A stretch of 22,299 bases of DNA from Gemmatimonadaceae bacterium (GTDB lineage Bacteria > Gemmatimonadota > Gemmatimonadetes > Gemmatimonadales > Gemmatimonadaceae). Location: contig JBBDYA010000080.1 of assembly GCA_040902005.1 (NCBI GenBank), positions 1 to 22,299 on the forward strand, in the 5' to 3' direction. Positions within the stretch are counted from its first letter, which is position 1. Each line of letters starts with the position of its first letter. Position numbers: made by a program. Shown one piece after another: positions 18,001 to 22,299 of the stretch.

Positions 18001-21000
18001 GGCCAGCGGTCGGAGGGCTTCCGGGCCTTAGCCGCCGTGCGCCAACTGGCCTTCCGGGTCCATTCGCTTCGACGCATCTGGCCGATCATCGACGGGGAGC
18101 CCACAGGCCCGTATTGGGAGCTGGTTTTTGAGGCCGGGCTATACGAGGACGCGGAGCAGTCACGCGACGTGCTGGTGCAGGCGGCAAACGCGGGCACGGC
18201 TCAAGAGTGGTTCCGCGCCCGCGAGAGGCCACATGCCTAACTCACTTGCAGTTTTGGCAGCGCGGGCGACCGCCCGTTCCCGACACCCTGTTGTACGTCT
18301 CGATGTTGTTCCCTTCGGTGCAGGTGTCGTCGTCGTGGTACACCTTCTTGTCGCTTTCCCGCTTCGAGTGGAACGGTGCAACTCTGGCCATGGTACCCTT
18401 CCCGTTAGGAGGAAGTGGAACGATATAACCAAAGACTCATTTAGGAAATACGGATTAACACGGCCGGTAGGAAATGCGAAAGGATCGCCTTTACTAAACC
18501 GGTCCGCTGCTCATTTCTTCTTTTTGCTTGGCGGTTTCCCGCGTTTTAGCGCCTGCTTTAAGGCGTCCTTCCAGTCTCCCTCAATCTTGAGGGTCTCGGG
18601 CGGGCGTCCGCGCTTCTTGGAGGGTGTCTTTTTCTTGGGCATTTCGTCCATTTTGGTAGTAGATTGTCTAGTGCGGTCGGCGGGGTTCGAACCCGCAATC
18701 TCGGCCAAGAGAAATAGATTCCAGGTCTATCGCGTTTACCGTTTTCGCCACGACCGCGCCCCGTACTGCCGTCAGCAGTACGGGGTTTCTTGTTTCCTAT
18801 TCCGTGGCCAAGCTGGCTTCCTGAGGCTTCCATTCGCGCTGCTCCAGTTCGGTGGTCAGCGCCAAGAGGTTCATGGGAGGAAGCCAAAGCGGTCCGAACC
18901 GACCTTTGCCGCTCAGCGACGCAAGGGTTTCGCGGACGAATGGGTACAGCGCTGCTGGCCCTGCTTTCACCACGTAATCGCGAAGCGACATGTTCGGTTC
19001 GTCGGTCTGTTCAACGACCGCGACAAACTCAATACCGAACCGATAGAGGCTGTTCGCCGCCTCTTCTTTTGGCGTGAACACAGAAACGGATACGATGCCG
19101 CTTTTCTCGTCCGGGGAGATGCCGACCCTGACCTTCACTTTTGTAGGTATGTCCTCGACGGGCGTGGTTGGCGGAAGGGCCAGCGCATCATTGCGCGTCT
19201 CGAAGTGGCAACGAGACAAGAAGATCTGATTGATCTTGATGCCGGGGTTTTTTGTGGCGTCCATTTAGTTCGCGAAGTACGACGGAAGGGTGGTGGTCAA
19301 CGTCTGACGCACCCGCTGGTGCGTACTGCCGCCTACGTGCAGCGGTGGGACGTTCGCCGTGTGTACCTGAAAGGCCCGCATCGAAATCGCGGGATACTCC
19401 GCTGTCGCTTCAGGGGTGGCACCCAACGGTTCTGTCCACAGGTCGCGCACCTGTCGGCCAGCCGCCCACAGCAGAGCGCCAAGCGTGCGAAGAGTCATGT
19501 TCGTCGAGCCGTTCAGAGCCTGACTCACATACGACTTCGTGGTGCCGAGCAGGCCTGCCACTTCAGAGCGCGACAGCCCAGCCCTCTTGATCGCGTCCTG
19601 AACAGCGGCGGTGATCGCGGAAATCGCTTCGTCCTCGGCATATGGACGCAGCGAAGTACCTGCGGGGAGCTGCCGCGCAATCCAGTGGTCGCTGGGCAGG
19701 TCATCTACGGTGCGAATCACGTTCTTAGTCATCTGCGGGTCCATTCAAGTAGTCCTGAAGCCGTTTCAGAGCCGTTCGGTAGTCCGGCTCTTGTCCTGTG
19801 GTCTTTTTCTTCGCCGCGTGAAGAACGACGTAGGTGTTCCGGTCTTTGTAGCCCCATGATCGCGTGACCTTGAGGTTGAACTGATGCAGATCGCGGAACT
19901 CCCCCTCCAACTGATGCCCGTTGTTTTCCAGCCGTATCCGCCCAAACCGGGCCATCTCGCGGCAGCGTTGAAGGAACTGCGCGAAGTCGTACGGATGCCG
20001 CTCCAAGAAACGCCGCGCGGGGAACTCGTGGCGGAAGCGCATCCAGCGGACCCGCATGGCGGGTCCGTCGAGGATGAAAGCGGTTTCAGGAAGTTCATCA
20101 GGCTCCACGGTGTAGCTATAACTACACCACCGTCCCACATTTCGCTAGGTTGGCCGTTATGTCCGCCAGTAAACAACGATTTGGAGCAGTTTAAGCCACA
20201 CTGGAAATTAGTGGCACTTGACGCACAGGGTGCGTGTAGTATCATTATACCATGCCTAAAGTCGCCAATAAGAGGTCAGCCCTCGAAGCCCGTATCCCAA
20301 TCGCCTGCTCGGATGAAGGCGCAGCCGTGGCGTTCCTCGAAGAACAGCGGTGGGGCGATACGCCCAACTGCCCGCGTTGTGGGGATACCGACGTGACGCA
20401 GATGAAGGCCAAGGACGGCACCCGCAATGCGCGGTTCCTGTGGCGCTGCAAGGGCTGCAAGCAGCAGTACACGGTCCGCGTTGGGACGATCATGGAGGAC
20501 AGCCCCATCCCCTTCCGTCACTGGTGCCTGGCGTTCTTCCGGGCCGCGTCCAGCAAGAAGGGCATCAGCGCCTTGCAGATTCAGCGCGAGACCGGCCTGT
20601 CCTACAAGAGCGCCCTGTTCCTCATGCACCGTATCCGCTGGGCAATGGCGCCAGCCAACGAGAACGAGCCCAAGCTGGGACGTGACGGCGGTATCGTGGA
20701 GTACGACGAGACATACGTTGGCGGTCGCCCGCGTGGTCATGCGCGGTACCTGAAGGCAGACGGTAATTACCGCTCAGGCCCCGCAACCGATTTCGCGGAC
20801 CGCAAGACGCCCGTTGTCGGCGGCATTGAGCGCGATGGCCGCGTAAAGGCTCGCGTTGTCTCAAGTCTCACCGCTACCGAACTGGCCAAGAACGTCGTCG
20901 CAATGGTGGACCCGTCAGCGCACTTGCAGACCGATCAGGCGCAAGCGTACAAGGCGGTCGGGCAGGACTTCGCCAGTCATGAGCGTATCCGCCACAACGC

Positions 21001-22299
21001 TGGCCAGTACGTGCGTTATACCGAGGAAGGCCTACAGGTCACGACGAATCGCATCGAGGGCTTCTGGTCGCTGCTCAAGAAGCAGATTCACGGCACCCAT
21101 ACCTCAGTGAGCCGGAAGCACCTTCAGCGTTACGTCAGCGAAGTGGAGTTCAAGTACAACAACCGTGGCCTGAGCGATGGCGAGCGCACGGTGAAGCTGA
21201 TTCAGTCGTGCGACCATCGCCGCCTGACCTACAAGGAATTGACCGCCGAACGTGACCGCCGTGGTCGCACCCTCAACCGTGACGCGTTGGGGCGCATCTG
21301 CAAATGAGGAAGCCGTGCGTCAAATCCATACACGCCGTGCTGACGCTCAGCGAGGACGTGATTCCCGATTCGCCAGCGCGGCTCCGAGCTCGAGCAGGAG
21401 GGCGCTGATCCGGGACATCTTCTGGTAGTCGACCTTGGCTGGTTCGTCCGACACCTTGTGGTAGTCCTCGTGCAGTCCGGTGGTGAAGAACAGCACGGGG
21501 ATTCCCTTCTGCGCGTAGTTGACGTGGTCGCTGCGGAAGTAGATGCGTTCCGGATGATCCGGCGTATCCCACTCGCGATCGAGCTCCATCGGGCGAAGCT
21601 GCCGCGCATTCACGGTGTCCAGGATGGCGCCCAGCACCCGGCTCTGACCATTGGGCGCCGCCATCGGCCCAACCACGTAGACGCGATTCTCGGCGGCCAC
21701 GCCATCGGTCTGCGAATTGAATGCTGCCGTGGCGCCACCACGACGACCGATCATGTCGAGATTCACGTGCGCAACGATCGAGTCGATCGGCACGGTGGGG
21801 TTGCTGGTGAAATAGGCGGAGCCGAGCAGCCCCTTTTCCTCAGCGGTGTGCCACACGAACAGTACGGAACGCCTGGGCGGGTTGTCCCTGAGGGATCGGG
21901 CCAGCGCCAGCATCGCAACGGTGCCCGAACCGTTGTCGTCCGCGCCATTGGCGATCGAGTCCGGCGACATGCGCGGCTGGATCCCGATGTGGTCGTAATG
22001 GGCACCGAAGGCGACGAACGTCTTGTTCAGCAGGGGATCGGTTCCGCGCACGACGGCGACGATGTTGTGCGAGGTCACCTGATCCTGTCGCAGATCGATC
22101 CGGCCCAGAAAGGTGCGCCCGTCCAGCGGGCGCGGCGAATCGTCCGCCTGCCAGTTGGCCGGCAGCAGGGGCGAGTTGGGGCGCGCCAGGCCGAGAATGA
22201 TCATCGGCAGCGGGCGCTCCGAGTCCGACGTCGTGCGGTCACCGGGCGATGCCGTCACCGTGCGCATCAGCTCGGGCGCGGCCTGCGTGTAGAACTCGG

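Follow-up and report, generated by a model that had tools for sequence, protein, structure and literature searches.

We report a cargo-carrying IS1595 transposon in which, as the reading that we favour and consider probable, a leucylated missense-suppressor tRNA recodes marked CCA (proline) codons of the element's own transposase. To the broader proposition we give about even weight for and against: a widespread insertion sequence group would have a swappable private decoder with a Leu, Ser or Ala body, its anticodon corresponding to a stop codon or to two or three rare, marked codons of the element's transposase, whose activity would depend on programmed substitution by that tRNA. The element lies in a stretch of 22,299 nucleotides from a Gemmatimonadaceae bacterium (contig JBBDYA010000080.1), referred to as the window, with these features:

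17791..17798: left copy of the 8-bp target-site duplication, GTGCTGAC
17799..21336: whole cargo-carrying IS1595 element, 3,538 bp (inverted ends, duplication, empty sites)
17799..17820: left terminal inverted repeat (88% complementary)
17851..18240, plus strand: 129-aa passenger ORF, no family found
18242..18391, minus strand: 49-aa small passenger ORF, no Pfam family
18511..18651, minus strand: 46-aa Lys/Pro-rich small protein, starting just past the tRNA
18672..18757, minus strand: tRNA with class II leucine body and UGG (Pro) anticodon (ARAGORN, Rfam, sequence, alignment)
18758..18797, plus strand: 12-bp hairpin with U-rich tail adjoining the 5' side of the tRNA, terminator-like, antisense to the tRNA
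18797..19264, minus strand: SecB-like chaperone (Pfam PF02556, E 3.8e-10; weak PADLOC match PD-T4-9_C)
19265..19744, minus strand: HTH antitoxin-like protein with C-terminal extension (Pfam HTH_31/HTH_3)
19725..20138, minus strand: probable HigB/Gp49-like ribosome-dependent RNase toxin (start probably near 20108)
20218..20245, plus strand: sigma-70-like promoter match TTGACG-16-TATCAT ahead of the transposase (1 found, 0.9 expected by chance)
20252..21307, plus strand: IS1595-family DDE transposase, 351 aa, intact (Pfam PF12762, E 5e-34; PF12760)
20297..20299, plus strand: marked codon CCA, Pro16, in the middle of helix 10-20 of the model (column: CCA in 61/75 Pro codons)
20651..20653, plus strand: marked codon CCA, Pro134, in the linker after the DNA-binding part (column: CCA in 28/32 Pro codons)
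21239..21241, plus strand: codon 330, TTG (Leu), third marked column of the family (elsewhere CCA in 36/41 Pro codons)
21315..21336: right terminal inverted repeat
21337..21344: right copy of the 8-bp target-site duplication

The tRNA is cargo within the IS1595 element, between its inverted repeats. Terminal inverted repeats and an 8-bp target duplication are features of the IS1595 family, and the window element has both, together with a DDE_Tnp_IS1595 transposase with a Zn ribbon. Present once in this genome, the element has a GC content of 0.60 compared to 0.68 and 0.66 in its flanks, and six of the eight same-genus loci examined have an empty site; a joined empty-site form, sought in four runs as a sign of current transposition, was not found. 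An earlier survey of the genome had described a chimeric tRNA borne by a mobile element and lying beside the transposase. The first part is strengthened, with the cargo between inverted repeats; the second has to be corrected, as the tRNA lies inside an element that reaches further (17799-21336) than the coordinates given then. The 46-aa lysine-rich ORF, the SecB and HTH ORFs and the IS1595 transposase were all found where the survey had placed them.

The window tRNA is real. ARAGORN called a tRNA-Pro(UGG) at 18671-18757 on the minus strand (its low-threshold output, -ps85, was mostly noise and was left out), and Rfam RF00005 matched 18672-18757 with 58.5 bits (E 1.6e-10). An assembly slip is argued against by a contig from the probable source sequencing run, which shows no differences over 17734-21900 (this is not independent evidence); contigs of three other runs gave partial matches only. 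The acceptor stem has 7 bp with G1:C72 and a 7/5 branch, the D arm has a 3-bp stem and a large loop with A14/A15, G18G19 and A20a, the anticodon loop reads C32 C33 U34 G35 G36 A37 A38, and the 17-nt variable region has a 4-bp stem; A15:U48 and A73 are present and the CCA end is not encoded. Single-strand folding of the unmodified 86-mer gave a minimum-energy structure other than the cloverleaf (z = -1.5), which is common for unmodified tRNA sequences.

Global alignment with the host tRNAs gave the best scores for Leu(UAG) (69), Leu(UAA) (63) and Leu(CAA) (54), compared to 52 for Pro(GGG) and 33 for Pro(UGG), in agreement with the survey's finding of a leucine-like tRNA with a UGG anticodon; the ordinary host tRNA-Pro(UGG) was likewise located at C79:22370. 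The bacterial LeuRS set (A73, the A15:U48 Levitt pair, G18G19, A20a, A14 and the long arm; tRNA-Leu list from the available part of PMC9976931) is present throughout, and the leucine anticodon base A35 is absent. Of the bacterial tRNA-Pro elements, G35, G36 and A73 are present, and G72 (C1:G72), G15:C48, G37 and the short variable loop are not: the window tRNA has C72, A15:U48, A37 and a long arm. The archaeal Pro set, which in the available part of PMC9976931 includes A73, G1-C72, G2-C71, G3-C70, G35 and G36, is matched except at position 2:71 (C2-G71). The host ProRS is proS_fam_I (556 bits), of archaeal/eukaryal type, and no proS fam II was found in the host above the cut-off; some prolylation is therefore possible in this host, a point for the ProRS option that the survey had overlooked.

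Related elements extend this picture. An odd tRNA is carried by 32 of the 44 complete transposase-anchored related elements, with none detected in 12; bodies are Leu, Ser-type or short with G3:U70 (Ala-type), and the anticodon is mostly UGG. The bacterial identity sets for Leu, Ser and Ala lie outside the anticodon (PMC9976931, part available). Among 20 transposase-anchored Leu-body NGG tRNAs, A15:U48 occurs in 20/20 and A73 and A20a each in 19/20, compared to G72 in 4/20, G37 in 7/20 and G15:C48 in 0/20; C33 is found in 5/20 and A37 in 12/20, and the stems of Leu-body tRNAs vary by compensated pairs. The short non-canonical tRNA matches have G1:C72, G2:C71 and G3:U70 in 24/25 cases, in a search that did not require these pairs, and 18 of 22 distinct short tRNAs have YUGG in the apical loop, several Ala-type loops folding with 8-9 nt. 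Leu and Ala bodies alternate on the tree with the same CCA pattern. Four G1:C72 copies occur in hosts with only a bacterial-type ProRS above the cut-off (these genomes may be incomplete). Judged from sequence, LeuRS determinants are kept in the family and bacterial ProRS determinants are not, so that of the two options that the survey had left, leucylation or a class II tRNA-Pro, leucylation is better supported. Some short Ala-type RNAs of the alphaproteobacterial clade (L331, L350) seem to carry a cognate UGC loop, and Leu-body tRNAs with many anticodons also occur near cas genes, integrases and toxin-antitoxin genes.

The transposase matched NCBIfam NF033547 with 164.6 bits (cut-off 75), and its AlphaFold2 model has a pLDDT of 90; a fold search with this model found nothing closer than remote DDE folds (best E 3.7e-5, TM 0.28). 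Across the compared transposases (median protein identity 52%), CCA makes up 125 of 148 Pro codons at the three marked columns, which were chosen from the data themselves, versus 15 of 339 at five control columns, and of 175 four-fold columns, the one ranking next for A at the third position reached a share of 0.34. CCA accounts for about 7% of host Pro codons. Residue 16 is mostly Ala, Leu, Met or Ile in outgroups, and the third column is a stop in four ochre-suppressor elements. The survey had taken prolines encoded by CCA or CCG in the transposases as an argument against leucine insertion; this overlooked that CCA is conserved as a codon at three columns, where it changes along with the anticodon, and that few invariant prolines use it (6/202 in UGG elements, background 8.7%; 27/424 in tRNA-less elements, background 6.6%), the difference in depletion between the two groups being weak (Fisher p 0.09).

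Several other candidate signals were discarded. Flanking synonymous positions vary at the CCA columns, leaving no longer DNA motif; no +1 or -1 fusion product or fourth-base rule is conserved at the marked CCA; and in-frame stops needing a suppressor inside the transposases were not consistent, scattered stops and frame breaks looking like decay. CCA in the 46-aa small protein is enriched in UGG elements (76/291 Pro codons, 15/33 after Gly), yet the pattern is not clear-cut, with 21/133 where no tRNA was found and 9/27 in three elements with other anticodons. Four IS4/IS5-type transposases beside Leu-body tRNAs were also compared for codon matching, with too few sequences and codons that are common.

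CCA occupied the marked columns in 51/51 UGG-bearing elements versus 9/87 others, and among 10 independent pairs about 6 agree and 0 disagree (p 0.031-0.063, with some tRNA labels set by eye and the trait columns left in the tree). In a test set of alphaproteobacterial-clade transposases, fetched after the marked columns had been fixed, CCA was found at these columns in 0/90 tRNA-less transposases, the lone Leu-UGG element (L321) has marked CCA, and four of four Leu-UUA elements end in TAA or TAG at the third column. Swaps of anticodon and codon tend to match (UUA/stop, UGC/GCA, UAA/TTA, AGG/CCT): GCA stands at one column in 9/9 members of the Leu-UGC clade versus 2/205 other transposases, TTA at three columns is confined to the two Ser-type UAA elements, one of these columns being a Ser-consensus site, and the single CCT of the AGG element sits at the linker column. 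These comparisons suggest that the marked transposase codon tends to change when the tRNA anticodon changes.

Other observations speak against recoding. Nine elements keep CCA where no UGG tRNA was found (eight with none detected, and L218), no tRNA was detected in 5/9 UGC-clade members, and third-column stops occur where no matching suppressor was found (L102, L239, L448). Non-UGG elements often keep Pro16 through CCG, CCC or CCT (e.g. L034, L040, L045, L053, L239, L242), and because it is kept by other codons without a UGG tRNA, proline is tolerated at residue 16. The linker and C-terminal residues may matter little, since both columns are variable. Recoding would do harm at some of the matching codons, namely TTA/TTG at a hydrophobic column (L034, L040) and TCG at a near-invariant Ser (L134), and G35, G36, A73 and G1:C72 could let the host's archaeal/eukaryal-type ProRS charge the tRNA.

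If recoding occurs, the tRNA gene would be transcribed, in this element probably as the last part of the toxin-antitoxin-chaperone operon, and its product matured by host enzymes and charged with leucine by the host LeuRS, which would ignore the anticodon. The leucylated tRNA would compete with host tRNA-Pro at CCA, so that residues 16 and 134 would be Leu rather than Pro in a fraction of the transposase (Ala in sister elements). A host-rare codon, a weak C33 loop and the avoidance of CCA at essential prolines would limit the damage to other proteins, and transposition would thereby be tuned by a tRNA-dependent switch. We lean towards recoding restoring a more active enzyme; that it damps the enzyme is a lesser possibility, and we leave a small share undecided.

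The module between tRNA and transposase bears on one of the alternatives. The order is that of TAC modules, namely toxin, HTH antitoxin and SecB-like chaperone (PMC9098466, part available), with SecB and HTH assigned by Pfam and the toxin candidate by an ESM Atlas language-model match alone (0.93; PF05973 Gp49 in 29/30 matches). With no match in Pfam, NCBIfam or PADLOC, the toxin assignment is a lead only. A fixed toxin partner was rejected: cargo of related elements varies (IrrE/ImmA-type, P63C, Fic, NYN, PemK, SocA/Panacea, methylase), SecB occurs once (L017) among 148 cargo ORFs by Pfam, and Gp49 has no match among them, although Pfam also misses the window's own candidate.

Four other explanations were weighed. 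bldA gates TTA genes in Streptomyces, and a prolylated class II tRNA-Pro supplement could similarly gate the transposase by speeding its rare CCA codons. The host ProRS type, the near match to the archaeal Pro set (part of PMC9976931), G72 and G37 in some copies, the rarity of CCA in the host, Pro16 kept by other codons in tRNA-less elements and the seemingly cognate UGC loops all favour it; we nevertheless judge it unlikely, given that G15:C48 is absent from all 20 copies, G1:C72 copies occur in hosts with only a bacterial-type ProRS above the cut-off (incomplete genomes permitting), G3:U70 bodies go with an identical CCA pattern, CCA is scarce at essential prolines, the host already has its own tRNA-Pro(UGG), and stop-codon versions cannot be cognate. 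Slightly less likely still is a kinetic role, the tRNA acting as an A-site ligand rather than an amino-acid donor and causing pausing, drop-off or +1 slippage at the marked CCA, with short DNA-binding products or lower transposase output. The marked codons lie at the ORF start, the domain linker and the ORF end, two of these columns accept a wide range of residues, Leu and Ala bodies can replace one another, and C33, A37 and the 8-9-nt Ala-type loops would suit such a role; against this, neither a fourth base nor a +1/-1 product is conserved after the marked codons, the GCA and TTA swaps inside folded domains look like residue swaps, and the charging determinants are strictly kept.

We regard as improbable that the transposase codons are secondary and that the tRNA serves proteome-wide mistranslation, as an RNA toxin or abortive-infection effector, or shields CCA from a HigB-type toxin. 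Expressing allo-tRNAs is lethal to E. coli, and toxin-antitoxin genes are found near them (PMC5389517, part available) as well as near Leu-body tRNAs of many anticodons. The element has a probable HigB-HigA-SecB module of its own, and in M. tuberculosis the TAC toxin cleaves A-site CCA codons (PMC9098466, part available). The module here is, however, variable cargo with a putative toxin, and a global toxin leaves anticodon-matched codons at fixed transposase columns unexplained. Least credible, at a very low probability, is a neutral passenger or pseudogene, that is, a tRNA-Leu that was captured and then underwent anticodon drift, CCA being retained for reasons at the DNA level. The 12 complete elements with no detected tRNA, C33 and the lack of an encoded CCA end are consistent with this, and tRNA-less alphaproteobacterial elements are biased to T-ending codons at the third column, which hints at a nucleotide-level constraint there. 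Compensated stems and identity elements kept across phyla, the covariation of anticodon and codon, and the freely varying third positions of neighbouring codons argue for the recoding reading instead.

Transporter insertion sequences of the IS1595 family have a single-ORF DDE transposase with a Zn ribbon, short terminal inverted repeats, an 8-bp duplication and variable passengers, all of which the window element shares. We know of no tRNA passenger or recoding in this family, and a literature search for either found none. Stop-codon-recoding phages bring their own suppressor tRNAs, and as with bldA or such phages a tRNA would here gate chosen genes via a rare codon or a mobile element supply the decoder; bldA, however, is cognate and chromosomal and phages recode many genes, whereas here a mis-identity tRNA would read two or three sense codons of one gene. 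Nematode nev-tRNAs are class II tRNAs with a foreign anticodon. So is tRNA-Ser(CAG) of CUG-clade yeasts, with ambiguous decoding and a non-U33 that curbs efficiency (PMC11415595, part available), but both systems are eukaryotic and genome-wide, with no tie to a mobile element's own gene.

Allo-tRNAs, which in E. coli deliver the amino acid that belongs to their body (Mukai et al. 2017, PMC5389517, part available), share the mismatch of body and anticodon; they have Ser or Ala identity, missense-suppress in E. coli, and lie near toxin-antitoxin genes, once overlapping a transposon-related ORF, comparable to the mobile and toxin-antitoxin context here. They differ in an 8/4 or 9/3 branch, a tetraloop D arm and G73/U73, against 7/5, a 3-bp D stem with large loop and A73 in the window tRNA. 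The polycistronic irregular tRNAs of that paper include 'tRNA2, tRNALeu (7/5)' with an ochre anticodon, and its supplement has 7/5 Leu-body tRNAs from soil metatranscriptomes (UUA in each of the 15 rows covered, out of 16), indicating that such tRNAs can be transcribed. The available supplement had no match for 'UGG', 'IS1595' or 'transposase', and the available part of the paper no link to codons of neighbouring genes. The tRNAProX/ProRSx pairs of Streptomyces and Kitasatospora (PMC10404621) are natural dual-identity bacterial tRNAs for purposeful mistranslation, in a reversed arrangement: a Pro body with an Asn, Thr or Ala anticodon and an adjacent dedicated synthetase, unlike the Leu body here, where no synthetase matched in the window element or among the 148 cargo ORFs. 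Their abstract names no matched target gene, whereas here the transposase is a likely target.

A search in which subscription papers and bioRxiv supplements were thinly covered turned up no report of tRNAs carried by a transposon and matched to the codons of its transposase; if true, this would be a way of controlling transposons, and of recoding sense codons in a single bacterial gene, that we have not found in print. Purposeful mistranslation in bacteria is known from few tRNA families, whose natural targets are unknown, and allo-tRNAs have so far been tied only loosely to transposons and toxin-antitoxin genes. Here a likely target can be read from sequence, in the marked transposase codons of the element itself, which vary in step with the anticodon, and the purpose of natural missense-suppressor tRNAs becomes a testable question. 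If the recoding reading is true, the active sequence of these transposases may be misread by standard translation, and in many genomes mobile suppressors of Pro-to-Leu, Pro-to-Ala and stop type would have been overlooked or labelled as ordinary tRNAs. The short G3:U70 tRNAs would also form a natural set of scaffolds of use for code engineering.

The 46-aa protein is kept across this IS1595 group (88 matches; in 51/56 complete elements), and in the ESM Atlas it matched unnamed clusters only. Terminator-like sites were no more frequent than chance (3 found, 4.2 expected), and stable hairpins (z < -2) were found on the 5' side of the tRNA in 30/52 elements and on its 3' side in 6/53.

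The window tRNA is a real feature, with ARAGORN and Rfam agreeing on a minus-strand gene at 18671/18672-18757 that has anticodon UGG. Its acceptor-T branch is of the 7/5 kind, its D stem has 3 bp and its variable region 17 nt; C33, A37 and A73 are present, and the CCA end is not encoded. In alignments with host tRNAs it scores 69, 63 and 54 against three tRNA-Leu versus 52 and 33 against two tRNA-Pro, bearing out the survey's finding of a Leu-type body with a proline anticodon. A contig from the probable source run, which is not an independent source, shows zero differences in this region. 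An ordinary tRNA-Pro(UGG) is present elsewhere in the host genome, and no tRNA-Pro(CGG) was found in the tRNA list of this 93% complete genome, from which further tRNAs are absent as well; the host tRNA-Sec lies on another contig (G000 C79:16226-16322).

The survey had also placed the tRNA beside an IS1595 transposase. Carriage by a mobile element stands, but the tRNA lies inside the element as cargo, between inverted repeats (17799-17820 and 21315-21336) that are bounded by an 8-bp duplication. The 3,538-bp element is single-copy in the host genome and has a GC content of 0.60 versus 0.68 and 0.66 in its flanks, which are joined as an empty site in 6 of 8 same-genus loci examined (one further, unpublished locus was set aside), the junction being out of view in the remaining two. 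It carries an intact IS1595 transposase, the tRNA, a conserved 46-aa protein, two orphan ORFs and a probable toxin-antitoxin-SecB module. Features close to the tRNA are:

18511-18651, minus strand, small Lys/Pro-rich protein of no named family, present in 51/56 complete elements with varying place and orientation
18758-18797, stable hairpin directly 5' of the tRNA in the window, likewise present in 30/52 elements
18797-20138, minus strand, probable HigB-HigA-SecB module

The hairpin may end an antisense transcript or help processing. L017 (L numbers denote loci collected from other genomes and metagenomes) has a comparable module in this position, its antitoxin being of the MqsA type, and the cargo of one element includes a DUF3800-IX RNA that adjoins a DUF3800 gene (L102:2545-2608).

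Transposase searches returned 43 loci from genomes and 79 from metagenomes, and once near-duplicates (92% identity) were removed, an odd tRNA was present in 32/44 elements with both ends found, in a position and orientation that vary from element to element; in a more distant alphaproteobacterial clade such a tRNA was present in only 3/52 elements for which a target duplication was detected. Three bodies recur: a Leu-type class II tRNA (mostly UGG, also UUA, CUA, UGC and others), a Ser-type tRNA (UUA, UAA, CAA, UAG or CCA) and an RNA of 67-74 nt whose D arm is minimal. The search for the last asked for no more than paired stems and a purine as base 73, and 24 of its 28 matches have G1:C72, G2:C71, G3:U70 and A73, three being ordinary class I tRNAs and one a degenerate RNA of another type; YUGG occupies the apical loop in 18/22 distinct short RNAs. 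These RNAs, for which Rfam reported nothing in the loci scanned, lie inside IS1595 elements at L023, L025, L038, L043, L044, L047, L049, L056, L058, L075 and L095 and further at L114, L190, L192, L193, L197, L199, L204, L218, L222, L248 and L258, mostly with UGG loops and with the same four acceptor features invariant. Leu, Ser and Ala are the systems in which bacterial identity lies outside the anticodon, according to the available part of PMC9976931. At L034/L035, L040 and L052, Ser-type tRNAs stand in tandem 120-250 bases beyond the transposase (one seen at L052), their anticodons being UAA and the ochre reader UUA, and the transposases there hold TTA codons.

The transposase genes themselves are marked at three alignment columns, those of residue 16, of residue 134 in the linker and of codon 330 (the third column). 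Among 85 non-redundant transposases (median identity 52%), CCA makes up 61/75, 28/32 and 36/41 of the proline codons at these columns versus 15/339 at five conserved control columns, a sixth candidate in the linker (14/52 CCA) having been excluded from the control. The next-highest share of third-position A among 175 four-fold columns is 0.34, and CCA accounts for approximately 7% of host proline codons. The window transposase uses CCA only twice, for residues 16 and 134, and its third-column residue is Leu.

Anticodon and codon covary across 138 elements, each of them either complete or with an odd tRNA detected. At least one of the three columns is CCA in 51/51 elements with a UGG tRNA and in 9/87 of the rest, a group into which four Ala-type elements lacking UGG were put; the labels of L024 and L048 were assigned by eye. 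The tree used for the next comparison covered 104 of these elements, 34 tRNA-less alphaproteobacterial rows having been randomly removed, and its alignment kept the trait columns. Among its 10 independent pairs on supported branches, an average of 5.8 agree, 0 oppose and 4.2 are uninformative (p 0.031-0.063). In an alphaproteobacterial test set retrieved once the columns were already fixed, CCA is found at the three columns in 0/90 tRNA-less genes, the single Leu-UGG element has CCA at the third column, and all four Leu-UUA elements of that clade have a stop codon there (TAA or TAG); L102, L239 and L448 have a stop at this column as well, with no matching suppressor found. With other anticodons the marked codon tends to change as well. 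All 9 members of a Leu-UGC clade have GCA at one column, versus 2 of the other 205, the tRNA being undetected in 5 of the 9; TTA stands at three columns, one of them a Ser-consensus site, in a related pair of elements with Ser-type UAA tRNAs and in no other gene; and the sole CCT of an AGG element sits at the linker column.

We consider it probable, from sequence comparison, that the window tRNA is a leucylated missense tRNA recoding the marked CCA codons of its own transposase: the gene would be transcribed and the transcript matured and leucylated, residues 16 and 134 would partly become Leu instead of Pro, and this substitution would affect transposition. In 20 Leu-body NGG tRNAs, located through the transposase and not by a tRNA pattern, A15:U48 (20/20), A14 (20/20), A73 (19/20) and A20a (19/20) are kept, and the bacterial Pro elements G15:C48, G72 and G37 occur in 0/20, 4/20 and 7/20. 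The ProRS of five other hosts tested is of bacterial type above cut-off in 5/5 and of family I above cut-off in 0/5, and four of these five hosts contain G1:C72 copies of the tRNA. On the opposing side, the window's host has a family I ProRS, the archaeal determinants of which the window tRNA largely carries, so mixed charging appears possible there. The same two facts would suit a Pro-charged tRNA that simply supplements the host supply, which we nevertheless regard as unlikely. Elements with a UGG tRNA seldom use CCA for invariant prolines (6/202, the background being 8.7%) but commonly for other, non-conserved ones (49/285), a sign of recoding and not of supply, since a Pro-charged tRNA would have no cause to shun CCA; tRNA-less elements have 27/424 and 16/250 (background 6.6%), and the contrast between the two groups at invariant prolines is weak (Fisher p 0.09).

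A device for pausing or slippage at the marked codons seems slightly less likely still, no conserved frameshift product having been found. The tRNA might instead act as toxin or antidote, given that the window element carries TAC cargo and that the M. tuberculosis TAC toxin cleaves CCA codons (available text of PMC9098466); SecB, however, turned up once in the 148 ORFs that related elements carry as cargo, so we take the match as a curious coincidence and such a role as improbable. Neutrality of the tRNA we judge very improbable. As for the direction in which leucylated recoding would act, Pro16 lies mid-helix (10-20) in a confident structure model (pLDDT 90), and outgroup residues are mostly Ala, Leu, Met or Ile at its column and Leu, Ala, Thr, Ser or Pro at the third, which favours restoration of a more active transposase form. 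On the other hand, Pro16 is often kept through CCG, CCC or CCT in tRNA-less and other-anticodon members, and some matching codons are located where substitution should be harmful, so recoding may instead damp the transposase.

The closest precedent in print is the allo-tRNAs of PMC5389517, which, in the part of that paper available, put Ser or Ala at foreign codons and lie near TA genes, once overlapping a transposon-related ORF; 7/5 Leu-body tRNAs with an ochre anticodon are described there from soil metatranscriptomes. The window tRNA falls outside the allo-tRNA structural definition as given there, yet should work like one. tRNAProX, as outlined in the accessible portion of PMC10404621, is the reverse arrangement, and the available sections of PMC8450103, PMC7609411 and PMC11415595 hold no comparable case. 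In the literature searched, with most subscription journals outside its scope, no paper came up that describes transposase codons matched to an anticodon. The window tRNA would be a natural mistranslating tRNA with a visible candidate target.

Leu-body tRNAs with non-Leu anticodons extend beyond IS1595. A scan of 185,579 genomes for the Leu-type D arm with a non-Leu anticodon gave at least 121 matches, and those listed include at least 93 distinct well-paired tRNAs with A73 and at least 25 anticodons, UGG being commonest (16); 41 viral matches yielded 19 such tRNAs. Among the 121 listed, 21 lie near a transposase of this IS1595 group, flanks being only 300 bases for 40 loci, and others adjoin other transposases, integrases, cas genes or TA genes. 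Two with Arg anticodons (UCU, CCU) lie inside cas operons (L083:3986-4070 and L103:3986-4069), one between GSU0054-type cas and cas4/cas1 and one directly ahead of cas6, cas7 being two genes off, a placement that resembles CreTA modules. Leu-body tRNAs with other anticodons adjoin DDE_Tnp_1 transposases at L062, L068, L072, L087, L119 and L135 and an IS1/IS6-like transposase cluster at L067, L110 and L132. A Gemmatimonadota group (L064, L076, L086, L091, L092, L104, L111, L113, L122 and L133) has anticodons CGC, GGC, CUC, UUC and UGC, mostly then CCC/CCG/UCC, and no nearby transposase of this IS1595 group. Leu-like tRNA remnants whose anticodon is GCC, ACC or UGC and whose 3' acceptor strand is broken (L078, L084, L089, L120, L121, L125 and L127), from Bacteroidota, Firmicutes and others and in some cases beside integrase or excisionase genes, are possibly integration-site scars. 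Two matches from an archaeal MAG (L082:3994-4077 and L108:1581-1664) have Ser anticodons and G73, so they are probably normal tRNA-Ser whose D arm resembles that of Leu.
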